Assembly: GCA_045636385.1 (NCBI GenBank)
Contig: JAZTXK010000048.1
Span: 1,954 to 65,953, forward strand
DNA length: 64,000 nucleotides
Direction of reading: 5' to 3'
Source: Eubacteriales bacterium
GTDB taxonomy: Bacteria; Bacillota; Clostridia; Oscillospirales; CAG-272
Part shown: positions 2,919 through 35,563 of the stretch, one piece after another
How positions within the stretch are numbered: position 1 is the first letter of the stretch
Layout of the letters: the number at the start of each line of letters is the position of its first letter
Program-made: the position numbers and the translations under genes
Notes under the pieces: model-generated
The model's database searches: none
Seen by the model: only the letters and a program-made list of their open reading frames with translations
Told to the model about the DNA's origin: nothing

Positions 2919-3341
2919 ATGAAAAAGTTCACCAAACTTCTCACCCTCCTACTCACGGTAGCGACATTTTGCACATTCGTTTTGCCGCTTTTTGCAAGCG
3001 CTGAAGATGGGATAACCCCGTATTATGTCACCACCGATAATTGTTCATGCGCTTTTGTTGCTTCAAACGGCAAAGGTGTAGCGGCTGTATTATACAATGC
3101 ATATAGCAACGTATTCTCCTATGCATCTGTCACGGTAAAAATTCAGAAGCGCTTCCTCGGCATATTCTGGTCAACGGTTGACGAGTGGACGGAGACCTGC
3201 TACGACGTCAACGGATACGTTGAAAATTCAACTGACCTCGAAGACACCGGAACTTACCGCGCCGTCTTCACCGTCGAGATCTACGGCATAGACGGCTCGG
3301 TGGACACAATCGAGGATAAGATCACCTCAACCTACGAATAA
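2919..3341 (+). CDS. secreted 140-aa protein of unknown function
   Basis: Signal peptide MKKFTKLLTLLLTVATFCTFVLPLFASA with an RBS. Its 3' end is repeated as relics at 5479-5556 and 11708-11776. Confidence 0.7.
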   Translation: MKKFTKLLTLLLTVATFCTFVLPLFASAEDGITPYYVTTDNCSCAFVASNGKGVAAVLYNAYSNVFSYASVTVKIQKRFLGIFWSTVDEWTETCYDVNGYVENSTDLEDTGTYRAVFTVEIYGIDGSVDTIEDKITSTYE

Positions 3342-3449
3342 TTTACAAAAATTATTCGCGAGAGGGGTGAGTCCGATGTTCAGATAAGGCTCAAGCGGCA
3401 CTTTGGTGCAATCTTTTTTCAAAAAACGAACCTTATCAACTTCAGGTAC

Positions 3450-3478
3450 TTGAGAAATACCGAAAAACATCTTATAAT
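3450..3478 (+). promoter_or_regulatory. sigma-A type promoter upstream of S1
   Basis: TTGAGA, 17-nt spacer, TATAAT. About 15 nt before the RBS of 3494. Confidence 0.5.
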
Positions 3479-3493
3479 AAAGGAGAAATCAAA

Positions 3494-3991
3494 ATGAAAA
3501 ACTTTAAAAGAATCATTTCCTTCGTGATGGCTATGATCATCTTCACTTCTTTCTGTTGCCTTAACAGCGGTGCGGAATTCCGTAATTTCTATGAATCAGG
3601 CACGAAATATAAAATGTTCACTTACAATGATGACAATCTGTCAGAAGCATGTGCCTCTATAACAAATTGGGGATATGACGAGGAAGATAACGATCTTTTC
3701 GCAGAAACTTGGGCGCACAGCGGCGGAATTGCGAATTGTAGAGCGCTTTGTGCTGTATCCGGTGTGTCTGTTCTTTTGGACGATTATACAGGAAGATCCG
3801 GTGAAAGTGAAATATTTTATCTCTACGGTGCTGAGTGGATGTACGCATATCACGAAGGTGGTCAATATGATGATTTCGATCACTGCGTCATTGGATTCGA
3901 TACTTCACATAAAGTATATGTCATTCAGTATATTAATGGCTTTATTGATAGCCAATACGGTGACACTTTCTATATAGGTACTTCATCTTAA
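3494..3991 (+). CDS. S-family small secreted protein (S1)
   Basis: AAAGGAG RBS. Signal peptide MKNFKRIISFVMAMIIFTSFCCLNSGA shared with 5710 and 8068. The mature part is acidic/aromatic and highly diverged. Confidence 0.75.
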   Translation: MKNFKRIISFVMAMIIFTSFCCLNSGAEFRNFYESGTKYKMFTYNDDNLSEACASITNWGYDEEDNDLFAETWAHSGGIANCRALCAVSGVSVLLDDYTGRSGESEIFYLYGAEWMYAYHEGGQYDDFDHCVIGFDTSHKVYVIQYINGFIDSQYGDTFYIGTSS

Positions 3992-4045
3992 TATATTTCC
4001 CCCTCGACTGAGGGGGAAATTAATAAATATGCGAGGTATATTCAA

Positions 4046-5449
4046 ATGAAACGAATGTTTTACGCACTTTTGATGGTTTTCATATTATGTATCTTGATTA
4101 CTTCCTGCACGAGCATATACTTTGAATTGCCGGAAGATGACATCAATTCGTCCTTAAATGTCGATACGAATAAAGAATATTTCACCACGGGAGCTGTACT
4201 CTCAAAAGGAAATATTAGTGAAGGCGTTTTTTATAACGGGTATTGGATATACAGAGAAGTACAGGAGTACAGGTACAACTATCTACGCGCTGACGGTAAA
4301 ATCGTGACGTCGTCGCCCACTCAGTTAGCCCGTTTTGTCAAAGTAAACGCCGCAACCGGTGTGGTTTCAAGTCTATGTCTTGATCCTGTATGCAATCATT
4401 CCGTAGGTTCGGGGTGCATAATGATCTGCCCCAAAGGCGGCATTCCGGTTATTCAGGGCTTAGTCGGCGATAACATTCTTTTTACGTACGGAATCCGTGA
4501 TGAAATCTACGGAACTGTAAACCAATCTTACTTATACAATCTGAAAACCGGCGAAGCCAACACTATTTTTGCTCAAAATATGGAAGGGGATATCTTGACG
4601 AAATATTCTTCAAGATATATCTTCGGCGACACTTATTACGTTGTTAAAAATATTCTGGATTTTTCGGAGACCGATTATGATCCTGCAGACCGGGTTCCTC
4701 TCTCGTTCTATACCCCAAAGACAGTCAGCATCCTTTGTGAATACGATTTTAAAAAGAACAATATAAAAGAATTGTTCGAAATCCCCGAGGATTATTCGTT
4801 ATGCATCGTCAGCAGCGAGAGATTTTTCTTCAGTACTCCCGAAAACGAGATATATTCCTGCTATTACAGCGGAAAAAATATGAAGAAAGAAAAGATTCTC
4901 GACTTTTCTCCGGAATATGTGTGCGGAACCTATGCCTATTCTGTCGATTACGAAACTTACAAAATAGTGATATATGACCTGTTAAACAACAAAAAATTCG
5001 CACTTCAAAATGAAGTAAGATCTACTTATTATACGATAACGGACGCGGGCATTATCAAGAACGATCTTTCGGTTCTCGATGAATACCGAAGGATTCAAAG
5101 CAGTTACGATGAACTTAAGGAACAGGGAATAACGCCGACTGCCGCCGATCACGATAAACTCTGCAGAAAGGTCCGCTGCAGCGGAGTAACGCAGATCTGG
5201 AAGTGGAGACACGACGGTAGCAATCCTGAAATGATATTTGAAATTGATAAATCACTGGTAAATATACTTTTTGCAACCGATGATTATCTCTATGGTTTTG
5301 TCTACCGCGCCGATCCCAATAATAATTTCGAAGAAATGCCGTATGAGAATGAAGGCAGAAGCTATATCGACCTCAAAACAGGCGAGATTACGCCGATTCC
5401 CTATCTTGAGTTGATCATTCCCGACCTTGTTGAGCAGCCAGGGAACTAA
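4046..5449 (+). CDS. L-family lipoprotein with C-x4-C-N-H Cys motif (L1)
   Basis: Lipobox ITSC. Conserved blocks SSLCLDPVCNHSVGSGC, YNLKTGE, CEYDF..KELFEIP, GTYAY and DLKTGEITPIP (INxKTGE in the other paralogues) shared with five paralogues in the window. Confidence 0.85.
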   Translation: MKRMFYALLMVFILCILITSCTSIYFELPEDDINSSLNVDTNKEYFTTGAVLSKGNISEGVFYNGYWIYREVQEYRYNYLRADGKIVTSSPTQLARFVKVNAATGVVSSLCLDPVCNHSVGSGCIMICPKGGIPVIQGLVGDNILFTYGIRDEIYGTVNQSYLYNLKTGEANTIFAQNMEGDILTKYSSRYIFGDTYYVVKNILDFSETDYDPADRVPLSFYTPKTVSILCEYDFKKNNIKELFEIPEDYSLCIVSSERFFFSTPENEIYSCYYSGKNMKKEKILDFSPEYVCGTYAYSVDYETYKIVIYDLLNNKKFALQNEVRSTYYTITDAGIIKNDLSVLDEYRRIQSSYDELKEQGITPTAADHDKLCRKVRCSGVTQIWKWRHDGSNPEMIFEIDKSLVNILFATDDYLYGFVYRADPNNNFEEMPYENEGRSYIDLKTGEITPIPYLELIIPDLVEQPGN

Positions 5450-5478
5450 TTTATCATTATTTCTCATAGTAACTCGCG

Positions 5479-5556
5479 ATGTTCATAGTCGAGATCTACG
5501 GCATAGACGGTTCGGTCGACACGATCGAGGACAAGATCACCTCAACCTACGAATAA
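5479..5556 (+). pseudogene. relic of the 3' end of the 140-aa secreted-protein gene
   Basis: Near-identical to 3264-3341 (..VEIYGIDGSVDTIEDKITSTYE*), including the downstream non-coding block. Confidence 0.65.
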
Positions 5557-5666
5557 TTTACAAAAATTATTCGCGAGAGGGGTGAGTCCGATGTTCAGGT
5601 AAGCCGCGTCCGTTACGTTCCGAAAGCAAAAACTTCGGAATAACACAACTTTGTCAACGCAACCGC

Positions 5667-5695
5667 TTGACAGATCACAAAAAATATCTTATAAT
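5667..5695 (+). promoter_or_regulatory. consensus sigma-A promoter upstream of S2
   Basis: TTGACA, 17-nt spacer, TATAAT. The same block is present at 8025-8053. Confidence 0.6.
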
Positions 5696-5709
5696 TAAGT
5701 AGAAAGAAA

Positions 5710-6240
5710 ATGAAAAAATTCAAAAGAATTATTTCCCTCGCGATGGCTATGATCATCTGCGCGTCGTTTTTGCTCGTAAATAGCGGAGCGGCATGGTATG
5801 AATACACCGTGGGAAGTGTAGATATGAGATCTGACTATACTGACGCAACTGCGTATATTGAAATTACCGAATGGCCGCAGGATACCGGTGGTACGGATCT
5901 TAAGGCAGGTACTATAGCTTGCACAGAGGGATATATCGATAACTTAGGTGATCGTTTCGTAACTTTTAGTGTATACGTTCACCTCGGAATAACGCTTGAA
6001 GATTATTTCTCATACAGCAGGGATCTGACCGTTGATTGGGACGGTGAAGAAGATTTTGCCGAGGCAATGATAGATGCAAGTGATTATCCGTTGGGAGAGC
6101 CTTATTATGCAATTATCGACTTGGGCTCGGTTCACGAAGTTACGGTAACCATATATACCAGATTTGATCGTGACTACGTCTGGTGCGACCCCGAACCTTT
6201 TCAGGACGGAGATTTGGTAGTATTCGGAATATCTTACTGA
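5710..6240 (+). CDS. S-family small secreted protein (S2)
   Basis: Signal peptide MKKFKRIISLAMAMIICASFLLVNSGA. The mature region shares only scattered positions with S1 and S3 (I.ITEW....TDL.A.T). Confidence 0.75.
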   Translation: MKKFKRIISLAMAMIICASFLLVNSGAAWYEYTVGSVDMRSDYTDATAYIEITEWPQDTGGTDLKAGTIACTEGYIDNLGDRFVTFSVYVHLGITLEDYFSYSRDLTVDWDGEEDFAEAMIDASDYPLGEPYYAIIDLGSVHEVTVTIYTRFDRDYVWCDPEPFQDGDLVVFGISY

Positions 6241-6298
6241 TCGTTATCCCCCGCGGCTTTGCCGCGGGGGAGCACGCAACACCAAAGGAGGCAATATT

Positions 6299-7720
6299 AT
6301 GAAAAAAACATCTTTAGTCAGCTTGATCCTTGTGCTGTGTATACTTCTATCCTCCTGCAGTACGGTCTATATCGATCCCGAAAAAGGATCGGATAATGAG
6401 TCCACTCTCATCGATGGAGAATATTTTACCGACGGTTCGTTATATCAAGCAGGAGAAAATCAGTCAGGCTTTTTTTACGAGGGCTGTTGGCTATATATTG
6501 AGATGCAAAAGACGATCGGCCCCTCCGGTTATTATATTCGAGACGGTGAAAAGCATATAATATACGACGACCAAGTGCAGATGAAGCGTATCGTCAAGTA
6601 TAATCCGCACACGGGCACAGTCTCAAGTCCCTGCCTTGATCCCGCTTGCAATCACAGCTTTGAATCGGGATGCCTGATGCTCGCTCCGCTGCCCGAGGGA
6701 CGCCAGAAAGTAACGTTCCATATCCGAACGATAATCGGCGATTGGATGCTGATATTTACCCAATGGACCGATGACGTATACGTTACGTTGAATAAAAATA
6801 TCGCATACAACCTGAAGACCGGCGAGTCGAAGGAGATCTTTGAGGAAGAGCTTGGGGAAAGTGTAATGACGCGCTGGATGGGAACAACTCATTTCGGCCA
6901 TAAATATTATATTGTCAAGCAAACTCTTGATTATTCAAATACGGAATATACGCACGGTACGGGCAATCAAAGCGTGCTTGACTTCGCACCCGAAACAAAG
7001 CAGATGATCTGCGAATACGACTTTGATACCGGTACGATGAAGGAGCTCTTTGAGATCCCCGAGAACTTTTACTTAAGCGACGTAACAAATAAAAGGTTTA
7101 TCTTGCGCGATGATATGAATGAGATGTATTCCTGCAGCTACGATGGAAGCAATATGTCCAAAGAAGAATATCTGGACGCACAGCAGGAAAATATGATAGG
7201 GCACTATGGTTACATATTTACTGATCTTGATGGCTTCATTATGTTTGATCTGAAGACGAATGAGAAAAAGCAGGTGACGGTCGATTATGACGAATACTAC
7301 GGCGCGGGGATCTGTGAGGAGGGAATACTTCTTGACCACGTAAGCGGGTACGAAAAATACAGAGAGCATCTCTCCCTGCGGAAGGAGCTTCCTTCCAAAT
7401 ATGCCCAAGAGTTGAATATCAGCCTTGAAGAAGCACGGGAAAAATATGACGCTGAAAAGAATGAGATATTGTTTGGCGGTACGACAAGGGTATATATGTG
7501 CGACTTCGACGGCGAGAATATGCGCGTGATCTATGAGGAAGAAAATGCCGTTATCCGATCGTGGTATGCGGAGGGAGACTTTTTGTTCGCCGAAAGAAGC
7601 GTTCTTAATGCCGACGGAAAAAAGAAGGTTTCCGATTGTGTTATCAATATGAAAACGGGAGAGATCACCGAGCTTCCCTTGCTCGATATCGTCGTTCCCG
7701 ATTGGTACGTAAACGATTAA
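6299..7720 (+). CDS. L-family lipoprotein (L2)
   Basis: GGAGG RBS, lipobox LSSC, SSPCLDPACNHSFESGC motif, C-terminal LDIVVPDWYVND. Confidence 0.85.
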   Translation: MKKTSLVSLILVLCILLSSCSTVYIDPEKGSDNESTLIDGEYFTDGSLYQAGENQSGFFYEGCWLYIEMQKTIGPSGYYIRDGEKHIIYDDQVQMKRIVKYNPHTGTVSSPCLDPACNHSFESGCLMLAPLPEGRQKVTFHIRTIIGDWMLIFTQWTDDVYVTLNKNIAYNLKTGESKEIFEEELGESVMTRWMGTTHFGHKYYIVKQTLDYSNTEYTHGTGNQSVLDFAPETKQMICEYDFDTGTMKELFEIPENFYLSDVTNKRFILRDDMNEMYSCSYDGSNMSKEEYLDAQQENMIGHYGYIFTDLDGFIMFDLKTNEKKQVTVDYDEYYGAGICEEGILLDHVSGYEKYREHLSLRKELPSKYAQELNISLEEAREKYDAEKNEILFGGTTRVYMCDFDGENMRVIYEEENAVIRSWYAEGDFLFAERSVLNADGKKKVSDCVINMKTGEITELPLLDIVVPDWYVND

Positions 7721-7727
7721 ATATTAT

Positions 7728-7761
7728 ACAGAGAACCACGCGAGGTTCTCTGTATTTTTTT
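7728..7761 (+). terminator. intrinsic terminator after L2
   Basis: Stem ACAGAGAACC/GGTTCTCTGT followed by ATTTTTTT. The same structure recurs at 10104 and 11847. Confidence 0.7.
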
Positions 7762-7819
7762 GCCAAAGGTATGGACTTTTTCAAAAAATGTGATAAATTA
7801 AATAAAAATTTCCGAATTA

Positions 7820-7854
7820 GTTGAAGAAAAAGCGTAATAATGACGGTATATATA
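7820..7854 (+). promoter_or_regulatory. second copy of the candidate ECF-type promoter motif
   Basis: GTTGAA-N20-GTATATATA with spacing identical to 2820-2854. Followed by what looks like a deleted remnant of the 140-aa gene start. Confidence 0.35.
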
Positions 7855-8024
7855 AATGAAGAAATACGAGCTATGATCGCATTCTCAAAAACGGTGGTAT
7901 TGATTAATAAAAAACCTACCAAAAATATTCGCGAGAGGGGTGAGTCCGATGTTCAGATAAGCCGCGCCCGTTACGTTCCGAAAGCAAAAACTTCGGAATA
8001 ACAAAATTTTGTCGACCCAACCGC

Positions 8025-8053
8025 TTGACAGATCACAAAAAATATCTTATAAT
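8025..8053 (+). promoter_or_regulatory. consensus sigma-A promoter upstream of S3
   Basis: TTGACA, 17-nt spacer, TATAAT. Part of a block nearly identical to 5565-5790. Confidence 0.6.
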
Positions 8054-8067
8054 TAAGTAGAAAGAAA

Positions 8068-8601
8068 ATGAAAAACTTCAAAAGAATTATTTCCTTCGCG
8101 ATGGCTATGATCATCTTCGCGTCGTTCTGCCTTGTAAACTGCGGGGCGGTACCTTATCGCTTCTGTCCTCTGTCAGAGCGTTATACTATCGAATACTTTT
8201 CCACAACAAGCGCATACGCATATGTCTACATTACCGACTGGGCTGAAGAAGAAAACACCACAGACCTTTCTGCATCCACCTACGCTTTTGTTGAAGATTA
8301 CGATTATTGGGACAATTTCGAAAACCTTACAGTATCCGTAAAGTTAGCAGTTTGGCTTGATGACGGTTCCGATTTTTGCCTTATCAGAACCGATTCCGTA
8401 GATGCTACCGATAATGAGGTTGAACTTGAAGCATTTGTCAGTGGCCAAACCTGCCTCGACAGTGAAAATCATTACCCTATAGAATATTTTGATACAGAAC
8501 ATGAAGTTGTCATAACTTTAATCAATGATAACGATCTGTCAAGTAATTATTATGACTATGTAAATGACGGCCCCGTTATTTGTATAGGTCCCGAGTATTA
8601 A
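8068..8601 (+). CDS. S-family small secreted protein (S3)
   Basis: Signal peptide MKNFKRIISFAMAMIIFASFCLVNCGA. Acidic, diverged mature region. Confidence 0.75.
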   Translation: MKNFKRIISFAMAMIIFASFCLVNCGAVPYRFCPLSERYTIEYFSTTSAYAYVYITDWAEEENTTDLSASTYAFVEDYDYWDNFENLTVSVKLAVWLDDGSDFCLIRTDSVDATDNEVELEAFVSGQTCLDSENHYPIEYFDTEHEVVITLINDNDLSSNYYDYVNDGPVICIGPEY

Positions 8602-8668
8602 TTCTTATTCATCTTTCCCACGCAGCTCTGCCGCGGGGAAAATGATAAGACGATTTTGGAGGTAATAT

Positions 8669-10087
8669 ATGAAAAAGCTAATACGGATGATACTATTTAC
8701 AGCAATTATTGCTATTCTATTGTCCTCATGCCAATCAATATATGAAATGCCCGTTGTAACCACCGGTCCCGCAGAAGGATTTGAATTAGCCCCCGACCAG
8801 GAATATTATACTATGGGTTACCCTTATCAAAGTGGAGATATTGCTTACGGAATGCTGTATGAAGGATGTTTAATTTTTATCGAGGAACGTCCGACTATAG
8901 GTCAGGTCGGAGTAAAGACGAACGGCGAAGAAAGCGTCCCTGTATATGGCGAAACAACTGTCAAAAGAGTTGTCAAATACAATCCGGTAACGGGTATTAT
9001 TTCAAGCCCCTGCCTTAATCCGAGCTGCAATCATTCGATCGGCTCAGACTGCCCTATGCTCTTTCCTTATATCGAGGAAGAGAAACACGATCATATATTC
9101 AGAGGAATATTCGGCGATTGGCTTGTAATATGGACGAATATTTATAATGAAGAATTTCGGATGCTCTATGAGGAAACCCTATATAATCTCAAAACGGGAG
9201 AGGTACGGCGCGTTTTCAGTGATGAATTGGGTTCAGAAATATTGGTTCGCTGGAGCGGCGGCTCTTATTATAACGGAAAATATTACAGAGTGAAAAAGAT
9301 TCTGAACTATTCGGGCACCGGTTATAAACCCGGGCAAAAGGGGATGAGTATTAGTAAATACACGCCCTTTACAAGGCAATTTCTTTATGAATATGATTTC
9401 GAAAGCGACACAAGTAAAGAGCTTTTTGAAATACCTACAGGATATAATCTTGGTAAGTTTACTAACAAAAGAATTTATTTTGCTAACGATGTGAGAGATA
9501 CAATCTCCTTTAAAATGGACGGCACGGATAAACGCAGAGAAGAATCCATGGATGGTATGGGTATAAATAATTTGGTTGGTACATATACGATTTACCAAAA
9601 AGACACTGGCAAAATCAATGGCTACATGGTTCACGATCTTAAAACCAAGGAACAAAAAGAAGTGATCTTTGATTTTTCAATGATAGGTTACGTCTGCGCG
9701 ACCGAAAAAGGCATTCTTGCTAATCATCAGACAAAATATGACGAATGGAAGAACTTTTCAGCAAAGGAATACCGCGAGCAGAATCCCGGTGCAACTACAA
9801 AAGAAGTCAATGCCGCAGCAAAAAAGATTTTAGCTGAGGGCACGGCACAGATATGGCAGTGCGGCTATATGGGCGAGGATCCTCACGTGATCTTCGAATT
9901 GAAGCATGCTATGATAAAAACGATCGCAGCACAAGGTGATTACCTTTTTGCCATAGTAAGCCGCTACGACCCCGAAACCGGAGAAGAAATATCAAATGGC
10001 AGATCGGTTATAAATATAAAAACCGGTGAGATCAGCGAGATCCCCTATCTCGATATCGTTGTTCCCGATTGGTACGTTAACGATTAA
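8669..10087 (+). CDS. L-family lipoprotein (L3)
   Basis: GGAGG RBS, lipobox LSSC, SSPCLNPSCNHSIGSDC motif, C-terminal LDIVVPDWYVND. Confidence 0.85.
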   Translation: MKKLIRMILFTAIIAILLSSCQSIYEMPVVTTGPAEGFELAPDQEYYTMGYPYQSGDIAYGMLYEGCLIFIEERPTIGQVGVKTNGEESVPVYGETTVKRVVKYNPVTGIISSPCLNPSCNHSIGSDCPMLFPYIEEEKHDHIFRGIFGDWLVIWTNIYNEEFRMLYEETLYNLKTGEVRRVFSDELGSEILVRWSGGSYYNGKYYRVKKILNYSGTGYKPGQKGMSISKYTPFTRQFLYEYDFESDTSKELFEIPTGYNLGKFTNKRIYFANDVRDTISFKMDGTDKRREESMDGMGINNLVGTYTIYQKDTGKINGYMVHDLKTKEQKEVIFDFSMIGYVCATEKGILANHQTKYDEWKNFSAKEYREQNPGATTKEVNAAAKKILAEGTAQIWQCGYMGEDPHVIFELKHAMIKTIAAQGDYLFAIVSRYDPETGEEISNGRSVINIKTGEISEIPYLDIVVPDWYVND

Positions 10088-10103
10088 GATTAATACGCTT
10101 TAC

Positions 10104-10131
10104 AGAGAACCCCGCGGGGTTCTCTCTTTTT
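10104..10131 (+). terminator. intrinsic terminator after L3
   Basis: AGAGAACCCCGCGGGGTTCTCT hairpin followed by CTTTTT. Confidence 0.65.
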
Positions 10132-10141
10132 GAAAAATATA

Positions 10142-10170
10142 TTGACATTTCACAAAAAATGTGTTATTAT
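10142..10170 (+). promoter_or_regulatory. sigma-A type promoter upstream of L4
   Basis: TTGACA, 17-nt spacer, TATTAT. The spacer shares TCACAAAAAAT with the S2/S3 promoters. Confidence 0.5.
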
Positions 10171-10252
10171 ATAGGTACAATATTGTTACATTGTTACATT
10201 TTTTACGGCAATGCAGCTGAGGTTGGTAAAATATATTATGAGGCATATTGAT

Positions 10253-11662
10253 ATGAAACGATTTGTTAACCTTATTTTGCTATCCATCGCGCTCTGTATT
10301 TCATTTACTTCCTGCACCGGTATTTATTCGGAGCTTCCCGATGTCGTAACGACGAATACTGTCACTGTCGATCTGAATAAAGAATATTTCACCACCGGTT
10401 CGGTATATGAAAAAGGCAATACGACCGAGGGCGTTTTCCACAACGGGTATTGGATCTACAGAGAGGTACAAGAATATTCATACAATTATAAAAGGCCCGA
10501 CGGTAAGATTGTAACGTCGAGCGGAAACAATATGGTTCGTTTTGTCAAATTAAATACTGCAACCGGGGTATTATCAAGCCTTTGTCTTGATCCCGTGTGC
10601 AATCATTCTATCGGTTCGGGATGCATTATGATATGTCCGTCGGGCGGCACACCGCTGATTCAGGGGTTTGTGGGCGATAATATTCTTTTAACTTACGGAG
10701 TACGTGACGAAATATACGGATATTTAAATCAATCCTACGTATATAATCTCACAACCGGTGAGACGAAAATTATTTTTGCACATAATATGGCAGACAATGT
10801 GCTCACTAAGTATTCATCAAGATATATTTTTGATGATACTTACTATGTTGTAATGGATGTTCTGGATTATTCGAATACCGGATACAACCCTCAGGATCAA
10901 CAACCGTTGTCAAATTACAATCCCGAAACCGTTAGCATACTTTGTGAATATGATTTTAAAAAGGACACCCTTAAAGAATTGTTTGAAATTCCCGTCGGGT
11001 ATTCGTTGTGCATTGTCAGCAACAAGCGCTTTTTCTTTTCAAGTACCGAAATGGATATGTATTCTTGCGATCGCAACGGTGAAAATATGAAAAAAGAAAA
11101 AGTGCTCGATTTTTCTCCGCAATTTTTATGTGGGACCTACGCTTATAATATTGATTATGAAACGTATGAAATCGAGATCTACGATCTGAATACAAATGAA
11201 AAGCATACGCTGAAAAATGAAATCAGTTCGACATATTGCACGATTGCAGAATCGGGTATCATCAAGAATGATCTGTCTGTTATGGATGAATACAAGGATG
11301 TCAAAGCAAACGGTTTTAAAGAGCTTGAAAAACAATATCCGGATCTCCATAGAAATGAAATAACCAAAATGTACGATACACTCTGCCGAAAGGTGCGCTG
11401 CAGCGGAACAACACAGATTTGGAAATGGGATCTCAACGGAAGCAACCCGCAAATGTTATTTGAATTTGATAAAGCATTGGCAAAGATAATCTTTGCTACC
11501 GATGATCACCTTTACGGCTTCGTATACCGCGCCGACCCGAACAACAATTATGAAGAAGCGCCGTACGAAAACGAAGGAAGAAGCTACATCAACCTCAAAA
11601 CCGGAGAAATAACGCCGATCCCATATCTGGAACTTATTATTCCCGAACTTGTTGAACAGTAA
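10253..11662 (+). CDS. L-family lipoprotein (L4, closest to L1)
   Basis: ATG 10253 has GAGG 7 nt upstream and gives the lipoprotein signal MKRFVNLILLSIALCISFTSC. The listed start 10211 adds 14 residues that do not look like signal peptide. Motif SSLCLDPVCNHSIGSGC. Confidence 0.8.
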   Translation: MKRFVNLILLSIALCISFTSCTGIYSELPDVVTTNTVTVDLNKEYFTTGSVYEKGNTTEGVFHNGYWIYREVQEYSYNYKRPDGKIVTSSGNNMVRFVKLNTATGVLSSLCLDPVCNHSIGSGCIMICPSGGTPLIQGFVGDNILLTYGVRDEIYGYLNQSYVYNLTTGETKIIFAHNMADNVLTKYSSRYIFDDTYYVVMDVLDYSNTGYNPQDQQPLSNYNPETVSILCEYDFKKDTLKELFEIPVGYSLCIVSNKRFFFSSTEMDMYSCDRNGENMKKEKVLDFSPQFLCGTYAYNIDYETYEIEIYDLNTNEKHTLKNEISSTYCTIAESGIIKNDLSVMDEYKDVKANGFKELEKQYPDLHRNEITKMYDTLCRKVRCSGTTQIWKWDLNGSNPQMLFEFDKALAKIIFATDDHLYGFVYRADPNNNYEEAPYENEGRSYINLKTGEITPIPYLELIIPELVEQ

Positions 11663-15333: not shown

Positions 15334-15699
15334 TTACACCCCATAATGAATCATATATTTCTCATCCTCTATCGCATTACGGATGGTTTCAGCCAATGCG
15401 GCAAGGGATTTATCGATTGCATACCTTTTATCGGAAACAACAATATCGAGAAATGACGGAAGGGATTCGGGCGGGATTATTGTTATTCCCCCACGCGAAA
15501 GTGACTTTTGCGATTGTAAAATGTGATTCGAAAAAACATTAAATGTATCAATTTGGGAAAGCGACTCCCACCAATCATTCAGATACATATCGTCATCTAT
15601 GGCTACACAATGATACTTTTCGGGAGCATATTCTAAGTATTTTCCTCGCTTTTGGAATTTTTCGAAGTCATCAATAATTCCAAATTCCGTACTGATCAT
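15334..15699 (-). CDS. small hypothetical protein, last gene of the McrB-like operon
   Basis: ATG 15699 is preceded by GGTGA. The listed start 15738 is TTG and overlaps the upstream gene. AT-rich relative to upstream genes. No recognised motif. Confidence 0.5.
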   Translation of the reverse strand: MISTEFGIIDDFEKFQKRGKYLEYAPEKYHCVAIDDDMYLNDWWESLSQIDTFNVFSNHILQSQKSLSRGGITIIPPESLPSFLDIVVSDKRYAIDKSLAALAETIRNAIEDEKYMIHYGV

Positions 15700-15727
15700 T
15701 TTATCACCATTATAGTCGAAATTATTC

Positions 15728-16054
15728 TTATTTATCAATAATGAAAGTCCATCTTGCCGCTATCTTCTCGGGCATCATACCCCTCAGAATTTCTGCGTCT
15801 CTTTTCAAAGCATGTTGGCGCGCGTGGAAAAACTCAAACTCGCCTCTGCCTTCGTGGAATCCGAACTGAAATTCAAGACCGTTTTTCTTTTTATACGGAA
15901 AAACAGGATCAAGAACTGCGTAAATCGCATTCAGGACGTCCATCGAGTTGGTTTTCCAGTTGGCAATTATCCATTCTTCATTTTCTTCAAACCAACCCCA
16001 AAAATATTTGGCAGCCGCAATATCTATTTTCTTTTTTAAAAACAGATCAAACAT
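15728..16054 (-). CDS. small hypothetical protein (108 aa)
   Basis: ATG 16054 has GGAGGT 8 nt upstream and overlaps the YdcF-like stop by 8 nt. AT-rich. No recognised motif. Confidence 0.55.
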   Translation of the reverse strand: MFDLFLKKKIDIAAAKYFWGWFEENEEWIIANWKTNSMDVLNAIYAVLDPVFPYKKKNGLEFQFGFHEGRGEFEFFHARQHALKRDAEILRGMMPEKIAARWTFIIDK

Positions 16055-16673
16055 TCAAGCTTACCTCCATGTCCTCAATAACCCCGCTGTCGGCGAGGTC
16101 TTTAAGGAGTCTCACCTCGGTATCGAGGGCTTTGAGGTTGTCTTCTGACTTGAACCATTCGTCGGTGGGGGCGTTGTGGAATGCGGGGTAGGCGGAGAAA
16201 GTCAGCATACGGGGCATGAGGGCTTTTGCGAGTGCCATACTGCGCTTCATATGCGCCTCGGAGGTGACGATGATGACGTGCTCGGCGTTCTTGAACTTCA
16301 GCTTACGGTAGATCTGCAGAGTGCCGAAGATCATATTCTCGACCGTGGTGGTCGCTTGATTTTCGAGGATGATCGCTTCCTCGGGCACGCCGTTTTCGGT
16401 CAGAATACGCTTCATAAAGTGCGATTCGCTGATCATCTCGCCGTCGATATCCCACTTGACGCCGCCGCTGGGGATGATGTAGGGCACTCTGCCCGCGCGG
16501 TAAAGCTCTGACGCCGCGAGGGCGCGGTTGCGGGCATTGTTCGGATTGCCGCCGAGCAAGAGCGCGACGGGCGCACTCATACCGTCGTCGACGATGTCGC
16601 CGCAGACGAACTCATATTTTTCACGGGGAGAGAGCGCCATAAGCGTCTCTTTTTTGATTTCGGTAATTTTCAT
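16047..16673 (-). CDS. YdcF/DUF218 (ElyC/SanA-type) family protein
   Basis: From MKITEIKK: LLLGGNPNNARNRALAASELYRAGRVPYIIPSGG and TTVENMIF..IIVTSEAHMKRS are typical DUF218. ATG 16673 lies 1 nt after the upstream stop. The listed longer ORF overlaps the upstream gene. Confidence 0.75.
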   Translation of the reverse strand: MKITEIKKETLMALSPREKYEFVCGDIVDDGMSAPVALLLGGNPNNARNRALAASELYRAGRVPYIIPSGGVKWDIDGEMISESHFMKRILTENGVPEEAIILENQATTTVENMIFGTLQIYRKLKFKNAEHVIIVTSEAHMKRSMALAKALMPRMLTFSAYPAFHNAPTDEWFKSEDNLKALDTEVRLLKDLADSGVIEDMEVSLNV

Positions 16674-16674
16674 T

Positions 16675-18063
16675 TTAATGCTCCTTTCCGCAAACGGGGC
16701 AGAGGAAAGCTCCATCGCCCGAAAGCGGGGTGATATTTCTGTAATGATAAGCTCCCGCGCCGCCGTGCGACTTTCGGGTGAAATTCTTGATGGAGGTGGA
16801 GTAATAGCCCGTGCCCGTTTCGGGGCAAACGTGCGCGCGGATGACGGTTCGGCACGCGCCGCATTCGTATGACTCATCGGTTTGAGTCATAGCTTTACCG
16901 CAAAATGGGCAGATTTTATGTTCGTCATCGGCGTAAACCATCGCGCGGAGCAGCATCTGCTGAACTCGGCGGAACGAATCAATATCGTAGAGGCTGAGGC
17001 GGAGTGATTCGACCCCGTCGGGCGTGACGGTTATGACCTCGTGGGCGTCATATTCGCTCTCGCGCATTGGAGATAGGAATATTTTATATTCAAATTCCTT
17101 CTTGACAGCGAGCAGGATGCCGACGTCCTCGGCTTTGATCGTAAGTATCCAATCGCCGAAGCGGGCGGATGTGTTGATGTTGGTGAAATGTATTGTTCGA
17201 TATTTGTCGAATTTAAAGTTAAAATGTCCCGCGGCAAAAACGCAGAGCATCGCGCAGAAGTGGGAATATTCCTCTTCGTCAACAAGTCCCACCTCGGAAA
17301 GATCGACCGCGCCGATATCCGAGAGGTATTTCGCGAGCGAATAGAGCTTGCGATAGTCCTTTTGCGAGCGGAAAATATTCGTGCGCTTGAGAGAGAGGTT
17401 GGTCTTGCACTTCTTACACTTTTTGTAGACGGGCATCGAAAGGCGCGAGGTGAGCGTGCGCTCGATCGTGCAGAGCTTTTCGTAGCAACGCTCGATCGGG
17501 AGCAGATATTTGTCGTAATCGCGCAGATAACCCGTGTGGAGCTTGCCGAGGGCGAGGAAATACGAGGGATGATTCTCGCGCTCGAGCAGATTGAAGCGCA
17601 TTTCGCGGTTTGCGTAGAGCATATCGCGCAGAACGGCGAGATTTGCCTCAGTCAGCCGAAGGATCGCTTCGACCGTCCTCGCGAAAACTATATTCTCATA
17701 GAGCGCGTAATCGTCCTCCTGTCTCACCGACATCAGCTTGCGCGGGATGAGTTGACCGTCCTTTACGTTCTCCCATAGCTCGCTGTGAACCGAAATATGC
17801 GCCAGCGTTTTGTTGTTTACAACGCGAACCGTCTCGACGGGCAGTATCTCGCCCGAGTCGCGCAGACGGATGATCGGCGCGGAAAAGATATGCCTTAGCG
17901 CGGGGAGCGCGGAGATTATTCTGTCGAGGATCGCTTCAAGTCCTTCAAGGTCGATATCCTCGCGCAGGGCGAAAAGATTGAGATCGGTCTGCGTCAGTGC
18001 GTCGAAATCGGCGTAGGAGATCGGCGCGGAGAGGAATAATTTACGGTAGCAGAGGTCGCTCAT
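16675..18063 (-). CDS. McrC/DUF2357-like partner protein with C-terminal zinc ribbons, no evident nuclease motif
   Basis: 462 aa. Starts 4 nt after the ATPase gene stop. RQEDDYALYENIVFARTV resembles the DTPEN-type motif of DUF2357/McrC N-domains. Cys pairs at C193/C198, C216/C219, C385/C388, C401/C404 and C455/C458. No PD-(D/E)xK recognisable by eye. Confidence 0.5.
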   Translation of the reverse strand: MSDLCYRKLFLSAPISYADFDALTQTDLNLFALREDIDLEGLEAILDRIISALPALRHIFSAPIIRLRDSGEILPVETVRVVNNKTLAHISVHSELWENVKDGQLIPRKLMSVRQEDDYALYENIVFARTVEAILRLTEANLAVLRDMLYANREMRFNLLERENHPSYFLALGKLHTGYLRDYDKYLLPIERCYEKLCTIERTLTSRLSMPVYKKCKKCKTNLSLKRTNIFRSQKDYRKLYSLAKYLSDIGAVDLSEVGLVDEEEYSHFCAMLCVFAAGHFNFKFDKYRTIHFTNINTSARFGDWILTIKAEDVGILLAVKKEFEYKIFLSPMRESEYDAHEVITVTPDGVESLRLSLYDIDSFRRVQQMLLRAMVYADDEHKICPFCGKAMTQTDESYECGACRTVIRAHVCPETGTGYYSTSIKNFTRKSHGGAGAYHYRNITPLSGDGAFLCPVCGKEH

Positions 18064-18067
18064 TTTA

Positions 18068-20422
18068 TCAGTCCTCGTTGAGGCTCAGAACGAAGTCGCG
18101 GCAACGGAGAAGTCCGAGGCGTTCAAACTCGGCGGCGAGCTCATCCTTATCGTCAACGCTCTTGAACTCGAGCTTTGCGACGATCTTCGAGAGCAGAATG
18201 CGCTCAAGTCCGTCCGCAACGGCTCGCTCGCCTCCGCCGAAGCAAGCGGCGTAGACACGGACGAAGTCCTCGATCTGATTTGCGATTCGGTTTCCGAAGG
18301 AAATATTATAGGGCGCGAGCAGAGCCTCGACCTGCGCGATGACGGGAGAGGACTCGATATCGAAGTAAACGGCATTCTTTGCCTCGCGGAAAAGATCGAG
18401 CAGAGTTTGCGCCGATATAAATCTTTGCGGGATCGGCTCGGAGAGCGAACGGATCTTCGGCGCGCGCTTGTTGAAGTTCATCGTGTGCGCGCGGTCGTAG
18501 ACCTTGTCGCTGATCTCAAAGGTGCTTTCGTCGCGGTTTGCCGTGCCGATAAACCAGACGTTTTCGGGAACGTTGATCGAAAGTCCCTCGCTCAGACCAA
18601 GATAGCGGTAACGGACGCCGCCGTGCTTGCGGTAGAGGGGCGTGCCGAGAAGTCTGATCGAGCGTCTGCCCTCCTCGTTTTCCATAAGCGAGAGGAAATC
18701 CGAGAAATAATACTCGATTCGCGAGAGGTTCATTTCGTCGAGGACGATGAATGTGGGGCGTTCGGGGAAGAGGCGGGCGCGGTAGAGTGCCTGCGTGAAC
18801 TTTTTGGGTGTGTAGATTCTGCTGAATTCGTTGTAATAGCCGAGAAGCTCGTTCTTGTCGCGCCAAGCCGACTCGACCTCGACAAGGTCACATCCGCCGA
18901 GAATCGCCTCGGCAAAGATCTTCGGAAGGCTCGTTTTACCCGTACCGCTCATACCCTGAAGGATTGTCAAGCGTGTTGTGCCGAGTCCCGCGATGAAGGT
19001 CGCGATATCCTCGGGGGTGTAGTAAAGGTGCAGGCGCGAGTCGCGCGCGTAGGTTACGATAAAATTGACGATCTCGGGGAGAGTGGGGTTCTCGAATGCC
19101 GTCGCGCGTGCCTCGTCAAGCTCTTCACGAAGCGTTTCATATTTGCGGTCGATAGCGGTAAAGGCGGGGCAGGGATCGTGGTCGCCGGGTGCGGCGGGAG
19201 TCTCCTTTTCCTCGGGAAGCTCTTCACCGAAGGAGGAATCGAGCGTGCCTACCGTCTGTGCGCCCGCGATGATAAGCTCGCCCTTCGTTCCTCTCGAGTA
19301 GGGCTTACGGATCAAAATAAGGCAAATAAGCGCAACCGCGCCGACGAAGAACCAATGCGAGGGGCTTTGAATATCGTAATTGAGACCGATCGACTCGGGG
19401 TCAATAAGACCGCCGAAGCCGTGGCTTTCAAGCTGGAAGGAGACCCAAGCGTCGAGAACATCCTTGTTGATCTGCTCGGCGATGGCAAAATACTTGCCGA
19501 AAAGACCGACGACGAAGGTGGTGACACCGCCCGTGACCACCTGACCGAGCGAGATCTGATAAAAGAGTCGCGAACGGCCGATCAGCGAGGTCAGCGAGAG
19601 AAGAAACAGAGCAAAGTTAGCGGCTACGAACGCGAGGACGAAGAAAACGAGTATCTGCATACCGCCCGTCACCTCGGTGACACCTCGAAGAGCATCCAAG
19701 CCGTTGAAGTAGATCTCGGCGATCTCAATATCGAATTTTACCCAAAGGATATCTCCGAGTGCGCAGAGGATTGCGAGCGCGGAAAGCGCCGTGCTGTAAA
19801 TAAATAGCTCAAAGCGCGCGCCGCGAGCGATATTTTTAGGCTTTTTGACCTTTTCCGCTGAAAGGGTATTTCTCGCAAGAATTGCAAAGAGAACCGTCAT
19901 AACGGCACAAATCCAGAACGCAAAGCCGCTCGAGGGCTTGTAGTGCGTGGTTGAGGATGCCGCGTTGCGTATTGCCGATGCCACGATGCTTGAGATAAAG
20001 AATGCGGCGGTCACAAAATCGGCGTAGACAAGGAGAGTTTGCAGAGCGCCGACAAATTTGCCGTCCTCAGCCGAATATTTGCGTACCGCGGAAAAAAGCA
20101 GATACGCGGATACCGCACCGATGATTATTATCGCAATAAACAGCACGAGCGCTTCAACGGTGAAGAGGTCACCGGGATCTACAACCACGTTGTTCAGCGT
20201 CGGCTTGAGATCTCGCTTATTAAAAATATCAAATGCGCGAACTCTGCCCTCGGTGAACGAGACGTTTGAGTTAACGGCAGTAGTTCTGTAAAAGGGTGCC
20301 CATAGCAATGAAAAAATCAGAATTACAGATATGATACCGAGTGCGATCAGGATCTGTTTTCGCATTTTATCGTTAAAAGCGGGGAGAGTGATGGTCCTTC
20401 CCGTACTTGGTTTTCGTGTCAT
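18068..20422 (-). CDS. membrane-anchored McrB-type AAA+ NTPase (about 8 TM helices + AAA_5-like core)
   Basis: 784 aa. Residues 1-375 contain about 8 hydrophobic helices. Walker A is LQGMSGTGKTS (G490-T497). McrB-style Walker B block FIVLDEMNLSRIEYYFSDFLSLME. Also NVWFIGTANRDESTFEISDKVYDRAHTMNF. GGAGGA RBS. Confidence 0.7.
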   Translation of the reverse strand: MTRKPSTGRTITLPAFNDKMRKQILIALGIISVILIFSLLWAPFYRTTAVNSNVSFTEGRVRAFDIFNKRDLKPTLNNVVVDPGDLFTVEALVLFIAIIIIGAVSAYLLFSAVRKYSAEDGKFVGALQTLLVYADFVTAAFFISSIVASAIRNAASSTTHYKPSSGFAFWICAVMTVLFAILARNTLSAEKVKKPKNIARGARFELFIYSTALSALAILCALGDILWVKFDIEIAEIYFNGLDALRGVTEVTGGMQILVFFVLAFVAANFALFLLSLTSLIGRSRLFYQISLGQVVTGGVTTFVVGLFGKYFAIAEQINKDVLDAWVSFQLESHGFGGLIDPESIGLNYDIQSPSHWFFVGAVALICLILIRKPYSRGTKGELIIAGAQTVGTLDSSFGEELPEEKETPAAPGDHDPCPAFTAIDRKYETLREELDEARATAFENPTLPEIVNFIVTYARDSRLHLYYTPEDIATFIAGLGTTRLTILQGMSGTGKTSLPKIFAEAILGGCDLVEVESAWRDKNELLGYYNEFSRIYTPKKFTQALYRARLFPERPTFIVLDEMNLSRIEYYFSDFLSLMENEEGRRSIRLLGTPLYRKHGGVRYRYLGLSEGLSINVPENVWFIGTANRDESTFEISDKVYDRAHTMNFNKRAPKIRSLSEPIPQRFISAQTLLDLFREAKNAVYFDIESSPVIAQVEALLAPYNISFGNRIANQIEDFVRVYAACFGGGERAVADGLERILLSKIVAKLEFKSVDDKDELAAEFERLGLLRCRDFVLSLNED

Positions 20423-20455: not shown

Positions 20456-20484
20456 ATTATATCAATAAAACACTCGCGTGTCTA
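20456..20484 (-). promoter_or_regulatory. sigma-A type promoter of the McrB-like operon
   Basis: On the minus strand: TAGACA, 17-nt spacer, TATAAT. About 30 nt upstream of ATG 20422, directly after the ddh terminator. Confidence 0.45.
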
Positions 20485-20496: not shown

Positions 20497-20531
20497 AAAA
20501 AAACGCCCAAGGTTTCACTTCCTTGAGCGTT
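20497..20531 (-). terminator. intrinsic terminator after ddh
   Basis: Minus strand AACGCTCAAGG-loop-CCTTGGGCGTT followed by TTTTTTT. Confidence 0.65.
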
Positions 20532-33276: not shown

Positions 33277-34032
33277 TCACGCAAGATAGAGTGCGACGCG
33301 GTCGAGGATTCTGTTGACGTTATCGACCTGCGAGATCATTCCGCCGATGCGGACCTTGCCCTCGCCGACCGAGGCAACGGCGTTGACCTTGCCGTCGAAA
33401 AGATCGCGGGCGAGCTTGATATCCTCGAATCTCATAAACGAGGAAAAGCTTTCGGGCGCGGAGGGGAGGGCGCGGAGGACGTGATCCTTCGCCTCGATGC
33501 CGAGGATGTGATCGTCGCCGATGGCGAGCTTGATCACGCCGTCAACGATATAGGATGCGCTCGCACGGCCGACCTTATCGACGTTTCCGATCTGCGCGAT
33601 CGCGTTTGCGATCAAATGGAACATCAGAAGCGTGCTTTTTTCAAAGAAAACGGGATCCTCCAGTGCCTTTTCGTCAGCGCGGAGGTAGGAGGAGAGGATA
33701 TCGGTCAGCGGCATAAACTTTTTGAGCAAAAATCCGATCTTCGTAAATCCCTTCGAAGGAATCGGCGTGACCGTTCCGTCGATCATTCCGTTGAATTTTT
33801 CGGGGGAGGAAAAGGGCAAAATAATATTGCAGGAATCGCATTCCGCGGCAAACCACGCCTTGCCGCCCGAAAAGCAGAGTGCGCCCGAGGGTCCACCCTT
33901 GACGCGGAATCCGAGTGAAACCTTTTCATTCTTTATGAGCTCTTTTGCGCGCTCGTCAAGCTCGCAAAGATATGGAATACTGCCGAGGATGGCGTGGAGA
34001 TTGATATAAGCGAGTGTTTTTGCATCCGTCAT
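33277..34032 (-). CDS. hypothetical protein (possible SCP2-like C-terminus)
   Basis: 251-aa ORF with coding-like composition, 9 nt upstream of the aminotransferase. ARDLFDGKVNAVASVGEGKVRIGG resembles SCP2-fold sequences. Tentative. Confidence 0.4.
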   Translation of the reverse strand: MTDAKTLAYINLHAILGSIPYLCELDERAKELIKNEKVSLGFRVKGGPSGALCFSGGKAWFAAECDSCNIILPFSSPEKFNGMIDGTVTPIPSKGFTKIGFLLKKFMPLTDILSSYLRADEKALEDPVFFEKSTLLMFHLIANAIAQIGNVDKVGRASASYIVDGVIKLAIGDDHILGIEAKDHVLRALPSAPESFSSFMRFEDIKLARDLFDGKVNAVASVGEGKVRIGGMISQVDNVNRILDRVALYLA

Positions 34033-34120
34033 TTTATTACCACCTATTATTTGTTGTATACAATTATATCATAAATAAATAATAAGTTCAAGTGACTACA
34101 GTTCAATTATTATTGATATT

Positions 34121-34152
34121 AAAAAAGCAGACTCGCTTGGAGTCTGCTTTTT
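34121..34152 (-). terminator. intrinsic terminator after L6
   Basis: GCAGACTC-GCTTG-GAGTCTGC flanked by A and T runs. Confidence 0.65.
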
Positions 34153-34159
34153 GGCTTAA

Positions 34160-35563
34160 TTAATTCACGTACCAATAAGGAACGACGATATCGAACTGCG
34201 GAATTGGCGTTACCTCTCCGGTGGCGATATTGATGCAGCAGGGTTGACTGTCGTAACCTTCCAAATGCTCTCCGGTTTCGGGGTTGTATCTGCTGACTGT
34301 TGCAAAAACGTAATCGCCGTATGCGGAGATGATCTCCATATACGCCGCGGGGAGCTCGAAGATAACGTGATTATCCTCGCCCAAATAGCCGCATTGCCAT
34401 ATCTGCGCCGCGCCGGATGCCAATATCTTTCTGACCTCTCTGTTTACCTCTTCCGTGGTTGCATTAGGATTATTTTCTCTGTACTTGCTTGCCGAGAACG
34501 CCTTTCTTTCTTTATGCTTCGTTTGATATGTCGTCAGTATACCTTTTTCTGTTACACATACTGGATTTACCAACGAATAATCAAATATTACTTCTTTTAC
34601 CTCATCGGACTTCAAATCGTTAATGAGATACCCGTCGCTTATATAATTGATAGTATAAGTACCTACAAGATTACTTGTTCGTATTTCCGGCTCCGACCGT
34701 TGATCTGTTCCGTTTTTAGTTAATGAAACAATTTCCCCGGTATCCATACGGAAATAAAATCTTTTATTTGAAACTCTGCTGAGCGACCAGTTCTCTCCTA
34801 TTTCAAAAAGCTCTTTGGACGTATCTGCTTCAAAATCGTATTCATATAAAAAATGTCTTGTTTTCGGCTCATAATCTGTAACAGATTGTCCTATTCCGGA
34901 TTTGTATCCTGTATTGCTGTAATCCAAAACACTTTTCACCTTATAATACTTGCCGTCAAATGACATTCCGGCAGTCCATCTTTCAAGGATCTCTTGACCA
35001 AGATTATCTTCAAAAACAGTTCTCTTCTCTCCGGTTTTTAAATTATACATAATTTCGGTATTAATCACACCGTACTCATCGTCCAGTGCTTGTATAAGGT
35101 AAACGATCCAATCTCCGAATATACCTTTAAACTTATAATACTCATGCGACCGTAATCCATATCCCAAAAGCATCGGACAACCCGATTCAAGAGAATGATT
35201 ACATGACGGGTCAAGACAAGGACTCGAAACCGTCCCTGTAACAGGATTGTACTTGACTATTCTGCTGACTTCAACATCACCGTATTTAGCGATTTTTTCA
35301 CCAGCGGGGCTTGTTTTGTAGCCGATGATTCCCGTAGTAGTATAGGTTTCAATGTAAATCAGACACCCTTCGTATAATGTACCGGAATAAAAATCTCCCG
35401 TATGATAAGGCATTCCGATAGTATAGTACTCTTCTTCTAAATCTATTTCAGGATTCGCGGTAGTTTCCGAGGGAACAATCGGAACATCGTAAACCGATTG
35501 GCAGGAGGAGAAAAGGAATAGAATCGCTAACAGAAGACTTGCGAGTTTTATTGTGTTTTTCAT
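34160..35563 (-). CDS. L-family lipoprotein (L6)
   Basis: Lipobox FSSC, SSPCLDPSCNHSLESGC, YNLKTGE, YEYDFEADTSKELFEI, INIATGEVTPIP, C-terminal DIVVPYWYVN. Confidence 0.85.
   Translation of the reverse strand: MKNTIKLASLLLAILFLFSSCQSVYDVPIVPSETTANPEIDLEEEYYTIGMPYHTGDFYSGTLYEGCLIYIETYTTTGIIGYKTSPAGEKIAKYGDVEVSRIVKYNPVTGTVSSPCLDPSCNHSLESGCPMLLGYGLRSHEYYKFKGIFGDWIVYLIQALDDEYGVINTEIMYNLKTGEKRTVFEDNLGQEILERWTAGMSFDGKYYKVKSVLDYSNTGYKSGIGQSVTDYEPKTRHFLYEYDFEADTSKELFEIGENWSLSRVSNKRFYFRMDTGEIVSLTKNGTDQRSEPEIRTSNLVGTYTINYISDGYLINDLKSDEVKEVIFDYSLVNPVCVTEKGILTTYQTKHKERKAFSASKYRENNPNATTEEVNREVRKILASGAAQIWQCGYLGEDNHVIFELPAAYMEIISAYGDYVFATVSRYNPETGEHLEGYDSQPCCINIATGEVTPIPQFDIVVPYWYVN

Follow-up and report, generated by a model that had tools for sequence, protein, structure and literature searches.

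Systems of the McrBC type are regarded as nucleases driven by GTP. Here we analyse two adjacent genes, which encode a membrane-embedded McrB-like GTPase of 784 amino acids (aa) and a McrC-like partner of 462 aa, in a 64,000-nucleotide stretch of DNA from a Eubacteriales bacterium (contig JAZTXK010000048.1), the whole of which is referred to as the window. A large branch of the McrB-like GTPases is defined by an NxD signature that is one residue shorter and usually followed by E or D, and the CoCoNuT systems fall within this branch (Bell et al. eLife 2024, PMC11090510); they are predicted to target RNA. In CoCoNuT types II and III the nuclease of CnuC, the McrC homologue, is inactivated or lost, with its CPxC motifs persisting (PMC11090510). 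The same paper mentions, without analysing it, the CoCoPALM group, which has an FtsB-like single transmembrane (TM) helix followed by a coiled coil and is associated with signal-peptidase and pilus genes. Judged by its sequences, the window pair is with high confidence a membrane-bound offshoot of the CoCoNuT systems. We are equally confident that it represents a two-gene McrBC-family derivative, in which a membrane domain of 8-12 helices replaces the coiled coil or DNA-binding domain that is usual for CnuB/McrB-like GTPases.

Comparison with described systems

With CoCoNuT, the window pair has in common the NxD(E) signature of the GTPase, nearest soluble GTPase relatives that lie in operons of CoCoNuT layout, and a partner homologous over its full length to CnuC (DUF2357, the position of the nuclease domain, the DxxSFRR helix and the CPxC ribbons). 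However, the window GTPase family displays a domain of 8-12 TM helices where CoCoNuT has a coiled coil, and the module consists of only two genes, without the CnuH helicase, the CnuE/HEPN protein, the TerY-P kinase module or another nuclease. Moreover, at 462 aa as compared to 643-907 aa, the partner has neither the long inserts nor the N-terminal extension, and the pair does not sit within a defence island. E. coli McrBC shares the AAA+ GTPase core, the downstream DUF2357 partner and the McrB-first operon order, but has an NxxD rather than an NxD signature, a soluble rather than membrane-embedded McrB, and both a DUF3578 DNA-reading domain and a PD-(D/E)xK nuclease that are missing from the window pair. 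CoCoPALM likewise combines an NxD-clade GTPase with a membrane-associated N-terminus; the window family differs by its 8-12 TM helices and by lacking both a coiled coil and conserved neighbours, and signal-peptidase and pilus genes are absent from the conserved neighbour clusters and from the top of the Pfam census described below. Finally, a group of McrB-like proteins with four TM helices also consists of NxD GTPases anchored in the membrane, with a DUF2357 protein encoded next, yet these form a separate clade, with four instead of 8-12 helices and a GTANKDDS-type motif. Members of this group (P0359, P0360, P0367, P0375, P0386 and P0388; loci L174 190-2504 and L177 1794-9957) are about 560-660 aa long, and one of the loci has two C5 DNA methylase genes upstream.

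None of the already catalogued systems fits both proteins. The GTPase does match the PADLOC candidate model PDC-M26A (E 9.9e-49, 164 bits), so that plain membership of PDC-M26 was considered. The match is nonetheless limited to the GTPase part (protein residues 450-591 against profile positions 301-440 of 724), all tested relatives of the NxD clade score 111-179 bits on the same model, soluble coiled-coil and plasmid-borne ones included, and none of 40 partner homologues matches any PADLOC model, hence there is no equivalent of PDC-M26B. With a domain-level match only and an unmatched partner, we rejected this membership as highly improbable.

The sequence-only reading of the window had held that no described system with this architecture is known. 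This statement needs to be narrowed, since the NxD clade and the homology to CnuC have been described already; what is new is the polytopic TM domain in place of the coiled coil, combined with the lack of a nuclease partner of any kind. The searchable literature yielded no account of a McrB-like GTPase with a polytopic membrane domain; all that surfaced there was the CoCoNuT paper with its preprints, and the portion of the supplementary material of PMC11090510 considered here has no mention of membrane or transmembrane. As family, motif and partner type are all known, we regard the pair as a variant of known McrBC-type systems and not as a new category.

The GTPase

The larger protein had been read as carrying an AAA+ core of the McrB/AAA_5 style, and indeed all of the quoted motifs are in place. 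Walker A occupies residues 488-498 (GMSGTGKT at 490-497, including K496), the Walker B region residues 558-581 (IVLDEMN at 559-565), and the segment that opens with FIGTANRDE residues 624-650, with the signature N629-R-D631-E632 (NxD-E) located within GTANRDE. Walker A, Walker B and the NxD-E signature are invariant in 18 of 18 aligned homologues, N629 aligns with the asparagine of the NTAD signature of E. coli McrB, and the GTAN(R/K)DE motif is common to about 145 relatives, including all of the top ones. Because GTANRDE represents an NxD signature, the window GTPase can with high confidence be assigned to the NxD branch of McrB-like GTPases on the strength of its motifs. E. coli McrB is also the best sequence match in the PDB (phmmer, E 0.005), and a profile of the 18 homologues aligned to it with a probability of 94.9% (hhalign, E 4.4e-8). 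Pfam AAA_5 reached 20.7 bits (E 4.5e-4), just below the cut-off of 22 bits, and NCBIfam yielded no match for either the GTPase or the partner.

Ahead of this core, a Kyte-Doolittle scan placed eight TM segments in the stretch of residues 24-371 (24-42, 92-110, 130-148, 165-183, 204-222, 257-275, 290-308 and 353-371), congruent with the approximately eight hydrophobic helices previously noted in residues 1-375. The loop charges are compatible with an N-in topology, which places the C-terminal GTPase domain in the cytoplasm. Most homologues have 12 predicted TM helices as opposed to the eight of the window protein, and the sequence of the membrane domain is weakly conserved, with a median identity of 26% across loci. 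In the family alignment, the conserved residues of this domain are found mainly in cytoplasmic loops (R203/E205, S284 and R372-K-P-Y375), with a further conserved stretch, GLFGKYY..N319, after the seventh helix. Such a distribution suits a membrane domain that would be coupled to the GTPase ring. Unlike its soluble relatives, the window GTPase gave no match to coiled-coil or SMC-like PADLOC models.

The relationship to these soluble proteins was assessed using an exhaustive HMMER search with the cytoplasmic part of the GTPase, in which 740 cluster representatives passed E<1e-30. Of these, the top approximately 75, a few fragments excepted, have 7-13 predicted TM helices. Below these, scores fall sharply to soluble proteins with the same GTAN(R/K)DE motif and N-termini of about 400 aa that match SMC-like coiled-coil PADLOC models. 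In a neighbour-joining tree the polytopic TM GTPases constitute one clade, the only members of which without TM helices are P0305, an N-terminally truncated fragment of 329 aa, and P0324 (546 aa), and the sister of the clade is a soluble relative. The nearest soluble relative, P0317, is encoded on a metagenomic contig (L175 1-14493) in an operon with genes for a Ser/Thr kinase, a 1057-aa Upf1-like helicase, a 548-aa protein, the GTPase and a 907-aa partner, adjoining HNH and N6-methylase genes. This gene order is that of type II/III CoCoNuT (PMC11090510). Thus, as far as sequence relationships indicate, the nearest relatives of the TM-fused clade are the soluble coiled-coil CnuB proteins of full CoCoNuT operons.

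The partner protein

The smaller protein had been described as DUF2357/McrC-like based on a DTPEN-like block, EDDYALYENIVFA, which is found at residues 116-128. This view stands: DUF2357 was matched in 25 of 40 partner homologues (best E 5.8e-8), although the window protein itself, at 22.4 bits, does not reach the Pfam cut-off of 23.3, and the domain displays the conserved motifs HxxxHSELW (89-97), YxxYENxxF (119-127) and FNLLERxNH (157-165). The decisive comparison is with the 907-aa CoCoNuT-type CnuC, to which the profile of the partner family aligned over residues 41-462 (hhalign, 99.9%, E 3.6e-31), including the DUF2357 motifs (HSExW, YAIYEN and FNLxE), LKKTNIF, the DxxSFRR helix and both zinc sites, with long inserts in the middle region of the 907-aa protein. 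The same profile matched a DUF2357 protein from a Deinococcus plasmid, beside which an NxD GTPase is encoded (hhalign, 97.4%), and found no match in E. coli McrC or in the 'nuclease domain-containing' partner from a Lactococcus plasmid. The full-length alignment to the CnuC of the nearest soluble relative identifies the partner, with high confidence at the level of sequence homology, as a reduced CnuC, consisting of a DUF2357 stalk, a nuclease-domain remnant without the catalytic triad and two zinc sites.

The cysteines were partly as first read. The C-terminal double zinc ribbon holds, with predicted sites formed by C385/C388/C401/C404 (CPFC at 385 and CxxC at 401) and C413/C455/C458/H462 (CPxC at 455); all eight residues are invariant in the 40 homologues, zinc-ribbon Pfam families match within the partner family, and both sites align with the CPxC zinc ribbons of CnuC. 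On the other hand, the count of five CxxC pairs has to be revised to four strict pairs (216, 385, 401 and 455) plus one CX3C and one CX4C, three of the pairs being conserved, and C216/C219 not. Searches of PDB sequences with the hidden Markov model profiles of both families returned only zinc ribbons of the eL43/TiaS type and a spurious match to MamA.

A full-length model of the partner (pLDDT, the predicted local distance difference test score, 77.6) had no significant Foldseek match in the PDB, the closest being helices of pore-forming toxins at E>0.4, and residues 252-462 were therefore predicted alone. The resulting AlphaFold2 (AF2) model (pLDDT 86.5, predicted template modelling score 0.85) consists of a helix, a five-strand meander, a second helix and the two zinc ribbons, and retrieved nothing at E<=1e-3 from the PDB or BFVD, only zinc-ribbon fragments. 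The domain of residues 286-378 sits where CnuC has its (inactivated) PD-(D/E)xK domain.

The conserved unit and its distribution

Each of the two proteins has hundreds of full-length homologues, and the partner gene directly follows the GTPase gene in all 82 loci for which downstream DNA is available, with gaps of -37 to +6 nucleotides (nt). The pairing is hence not a matter of chance. Clustering of all flanking open reading frames (ORFs) at 84 loci revealed no conserved neighbour other than the pair itself, and the conserved unit is an obligate two-gene module. With one genome scanned per GTDB species, the module is carried by at least 541 species, all of them Firmicutes and almost all represented by metagenome-assembled genomes from gut or rumen. 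The carriers belong to the Clostridia (Acutalibacteraceae, Oscillospiraceae and Christensenellales) and to the Bacilli (Anaeroplasmataceae, Izemoplasmatales, Erysipelotrichaceae and others).

The versions with three and five genes that had been suggested before extend beyond this unit. A gene for a DUF218 protein, which adds the third, is confined to close relatives, and the 108- and 134-aa ORFs that add the remaining two are rarer still, being limited to the window and one near-identical relative; a three- or five-gene operon was thus rejected. Throughout the lineage of the window, DUF218 is a lineage-specific third gene that is translationally coupled to the partner gene, its start lying 1 nt after the stop of the latter, and it possibly serves the system as an accessory specific to this lineage. 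The DUF218 protein (YdcF/SanA-like) keeps pace with the pair in its divergence (60-96% identity), and one relative has two tandem copies (L091 10878-12176).

Putative mechanism and function

A possible mechanism can be outlined by analogy to the solved McrBC complexes, which, as summarised in PMC11090510, are the basis for a hexamer with a DUF2357 stalk inserted in its ring. The GTPase domains would assemble into a hexameric ring that sits at the membrane's cytoplasmic face, anchored there by 48-72 TM helices, and the DUF2357 stalk of the partner would enter the ring and stimulate GTP hydrolysis via the Nx(x)D aspartate. The nuclease remnant and zinc ribbons would then act as a nucleic-acid-binding sensor. 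A nuclease domain was found neither in the pair nor in any conserved neighbour at the 84 loci; the output is therefore not expected to be cleavage, leaving the membrane domain as the only candidate. It may consist of a GTP-driven change of this domain, leading to loss of membrane integrity, as in abortive infection, or to an entry block. Taken together with a role in conflict with phages or other invading nucleic acid, this is the reading that we tentatively prefer; the conflict or defence role on its own is held with moderate to low confidence. In its favour are the defence-type operons of the relatives, the C5 methylases near the four-TM group, and the fast evolution of the pair as compared to the dap genes beside it.

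Could the partner still cut? In a conventional type IV restriction system, a divergent nuclease would reside in the beta domain or in the zinc-ribbon module, and the membrane domain would serve for localisation only. The middle domain does retain several polar residues that are invariant or close to it (H280, K322, E342, D360, R365 and R366), and PD-(D/E)xK domains are so divergent that Foldseek and Pfam can both miss them. Nevertheless, the alignment of the partner family contains no conserved D...(D/E)xK triad in the right order. The strand LLAVKK, previously put forward as the best candidate and as lacking the acidic residue, is at residues 317-322. Nor does any of the 40 homologues match a nuclease Pfam family, whereas the partner of the Lactococcus relative readily matches PDDEXK_7, and the confident model of residues 252-462 resembles no nuclease in the PDB or BFVD. 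The domain is also short, about 95 aa against about 164 aa for PDDEXK_7, and D360, S363, F364, R365 and R366 are retained in the CnuC of the operon with CoCoNuT layout as well, a type in which CnuC nucleases are inactivated or lost (PMC11090510). The missing triad, Pfam match and structural match together support the original description of the partner as nuclease-less, and we consider a cryptic nuclease improbable. The lack of a nuclease is besides a trait already known in the subgroup of CnuC in which the HEPN-domain components CnuE and CnuH supply this activity.

A role other than defence is harder to dismiss. The pair may be a domesticated membrane machine, in which an McrB-type ring and a CnuC-like stalk serve a cellular membrane process, for example the handling of nucleic acid or another polymer, and we see this as a real, if lesser, possibility. 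The layout of TM domain, variable linker and hexameric NTPase resembles FtsK/SpoIIIE; the pilus link of CoCoPALM offers a parallel case, such a non-restriction association (pilus assembly) having already been proposed by Bell et al. for another NxD group (PMC11090510). Several observations that favour domestication at the same time weigh against defence, for which the expected contextual support is lacking. In a census of the 246 nearest neighbours from 72 loci (two genes on either side of each locus, PADLOC v2.0.0), about a dozen (approximately 5%, close to background) matched credible defence models, including BrxL, AbiEii, a type IIG enzyme, LmuA and, in one sub-lineage, PDC-S01. The remainder were housekeeping or miscellaneous genes, mainly of ordinary metabolism and transport in the Pfam census, and no enrichment of a defence-island kind was seen. 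The sequence-only reading had itself named homologues in conserved housekeeping contexts, with no phage or plasmid phenotype, as speaking against defence; the census bears out the housekeeping contexts in part. Furthermore, the pair is single-copy and chromosomal, its GC content (0.53-0.56) is that of its surroundings, and all 16 related loci have it at dapA-dapB-ddh, among them the four picked via Ddh alone, a fixation at one locus in the lineage of the window that is unusual for a defence system. Plasmid, phage and IMG/VR collections contain no close relatives but only distant soluble ones (<=38% identity), and carriage on plasmids, phages or viral contigs was rejected. The at least 541 carrier species include the small-genome Anaeroplasmataceae and Izemoplasmatales, and the GTPase domain is very strongly conserved (at least 59% identity across loci and classes). 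Finally, the hexamer, the insertion of the stalk, the binding of nucleic acid and the membrane output are all steps that we infer by analogy, which tells against the defence mechanism as well.

Against domestication, no conserved partner gene points to a cellular pathway, and the locus differs between lineages: in more distant ones the dapB-ddh locus is empty, the pair being located elsewhere. Evolution of the membrane domain and the partner is much faster than that of the housekeeping genes next to them, as exemplified by syntenic relatives with 57% identity in the GTPase (43% in its TM part) and 62% in the partner, versus 86-88% in the flanking dap genes. The TM helices are too weakly conserved for a substrate-specific transporter. 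Moreover, every relative with an informative context, the nearest ones included, lies in a defence-type operon. A more specific proposal spans both roles, namely that the ring and a gamma-subunit-like CnuC stalk form a membrane-embedded, nucleic-acid-gated and nuclease-free machine, either a pore or gate that is formed by 48-72 helices and driven by GTP, or a domesticated housekeeping motor. In the pore or gate version, the cell would be killed or sealed once the zinc-ribbon partner senses foreign nucleic acid at the membrane. Stated this precisely, we deem the proposal rather unlikely; if true, in either version, it would be the first McrBC-family member with an output at the membrane instead of on DNA or RNA.

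Whichever role applies, the pair strips the McrBC machinery down to a motor and an activator on the membrane, free of nuclease, and offers a minimal two-protein entry point for the biochemistry of NxD GTPases. A role in defence, the tentatively preferred reading, would mean a new effector logic for the family, a membrane output gated by a McrC-like sensor, and would add a common system to the poorly studied gut Clostridia and wall-less Bacilli. A role outside defence would make it a clear example of the recruitment of a restriction motor to a cellular membrane function.

Organization of the locus

The positions of the two genes, their domains and the flanking features are collected in Table 1. 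The two ORFs are as reported earlier, with the 4-nt gap between them, and in agreement with the previous remark no methyltransferase gene lies beside the pair within the window. The claim that the pair has its own promoter holds at the level of consensus: the promoter-like site upstream of the ATPase start agrees in 11 of 12 consensus positions and is the best in the region, a GGAGGA ribosome-binding site precedes the ATPase ATG by about 8 nt, and a hairpin with a T-run, which a motif scan of the region did not list, separates ddh from the pair.

Table 1. Features of the two-gene module and its flanks in the window
Feature	Coordinates	Strand	Basis
Membrane-anchored McrB-like (NxD-clade) GTPase gene, 784 aa	18068..20422	-	ORF confirmed
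CnuC/McrC-like partner gene, 462 aa	16675..18063	-	ORF confirmed; start 4 nt past the ATPase stop codon
GTPase residues 1-375, polytopic membrane domain, 8 predicted TM helices, N-in	19298..20422	-	Hydropathy scan
GTPase residues 376-440, linker of variable length with invariant DPCPAF at 416-421	19103..19297	-	Alignment
GTPase residues 441-784, AAA+ McrB-type GTPase domain	18071..19102	-	Motifs and profile matches
Partner residues 40-285, DUF2357 (McrC N-terminal) domain, long helices	17209..17946	-	Pfam and hhalign
Partner residues 286-378, small domain with five-strand beta meander and DxxSFRR helix	16930..17208	-	AF2 model and conservation
Partner residues 379-462, two predicted zinc-binding sites	16678..16929	-	Conservation and Pfam zinc-ribbon matches
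DUF218 gene, true start ATG at 16673	16047..16673	-	Pfam DUF218, E 9e-25
Promoter-like site: TAGACA, 17-nt spacer, TG-extended TATAAT (TAGACA-17-TGnTATAAT)	20456..20484	-	Consensus match only
Terminator-like hairpin, ACGCTCAAGG / CCTTGGGCGT, 8-nt loop, then T-run, just past ddh	20497..20530	-	By eye

In the window, ddh is upstream of and co-directional with the pair, unlike in L014 (9814-10911) and L018 (9988-10974), members of a distant sub-clade (GTPase 48-49% identical) in which ddh is downstream and convergent; its presence beside the pair there may be either fortuitous or what is left of an old synteny. In one Clostridiales sub-lineage (L060, L066, L069, L070 and L073; about 9.5-13.6 kb), the pair has a very large ORF, of up to about 1,330 aa, directly after it. 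A second census contains three flank proteins that match PDC-S01 strongly (E down to 8e-167), and these are probably the very large ORFs in question.

The 108- and 134-aa ORFs overlap and lie on the minus strand at 15334-16054, between the DUF218 gene and a TMEM164-like gene, in a stretch with a GC content of 0.40 as compared to 0.53-0.56 around it. Neither has a Pfam, PADLOC or NCBIfam match, and outside the window and its closest relative (L009) DUF218 is directly followed by TMEM164. The stretch looks like a recent insertion, possibly of an immunity-type or toxin-related pair. Low GC content (0.34-0.43 against a background of approximately 0.52-0.57) also marks positions 2001-11000, 34001-37000 and 50001-52000 of the window, which are possible islands of foreign DNA.

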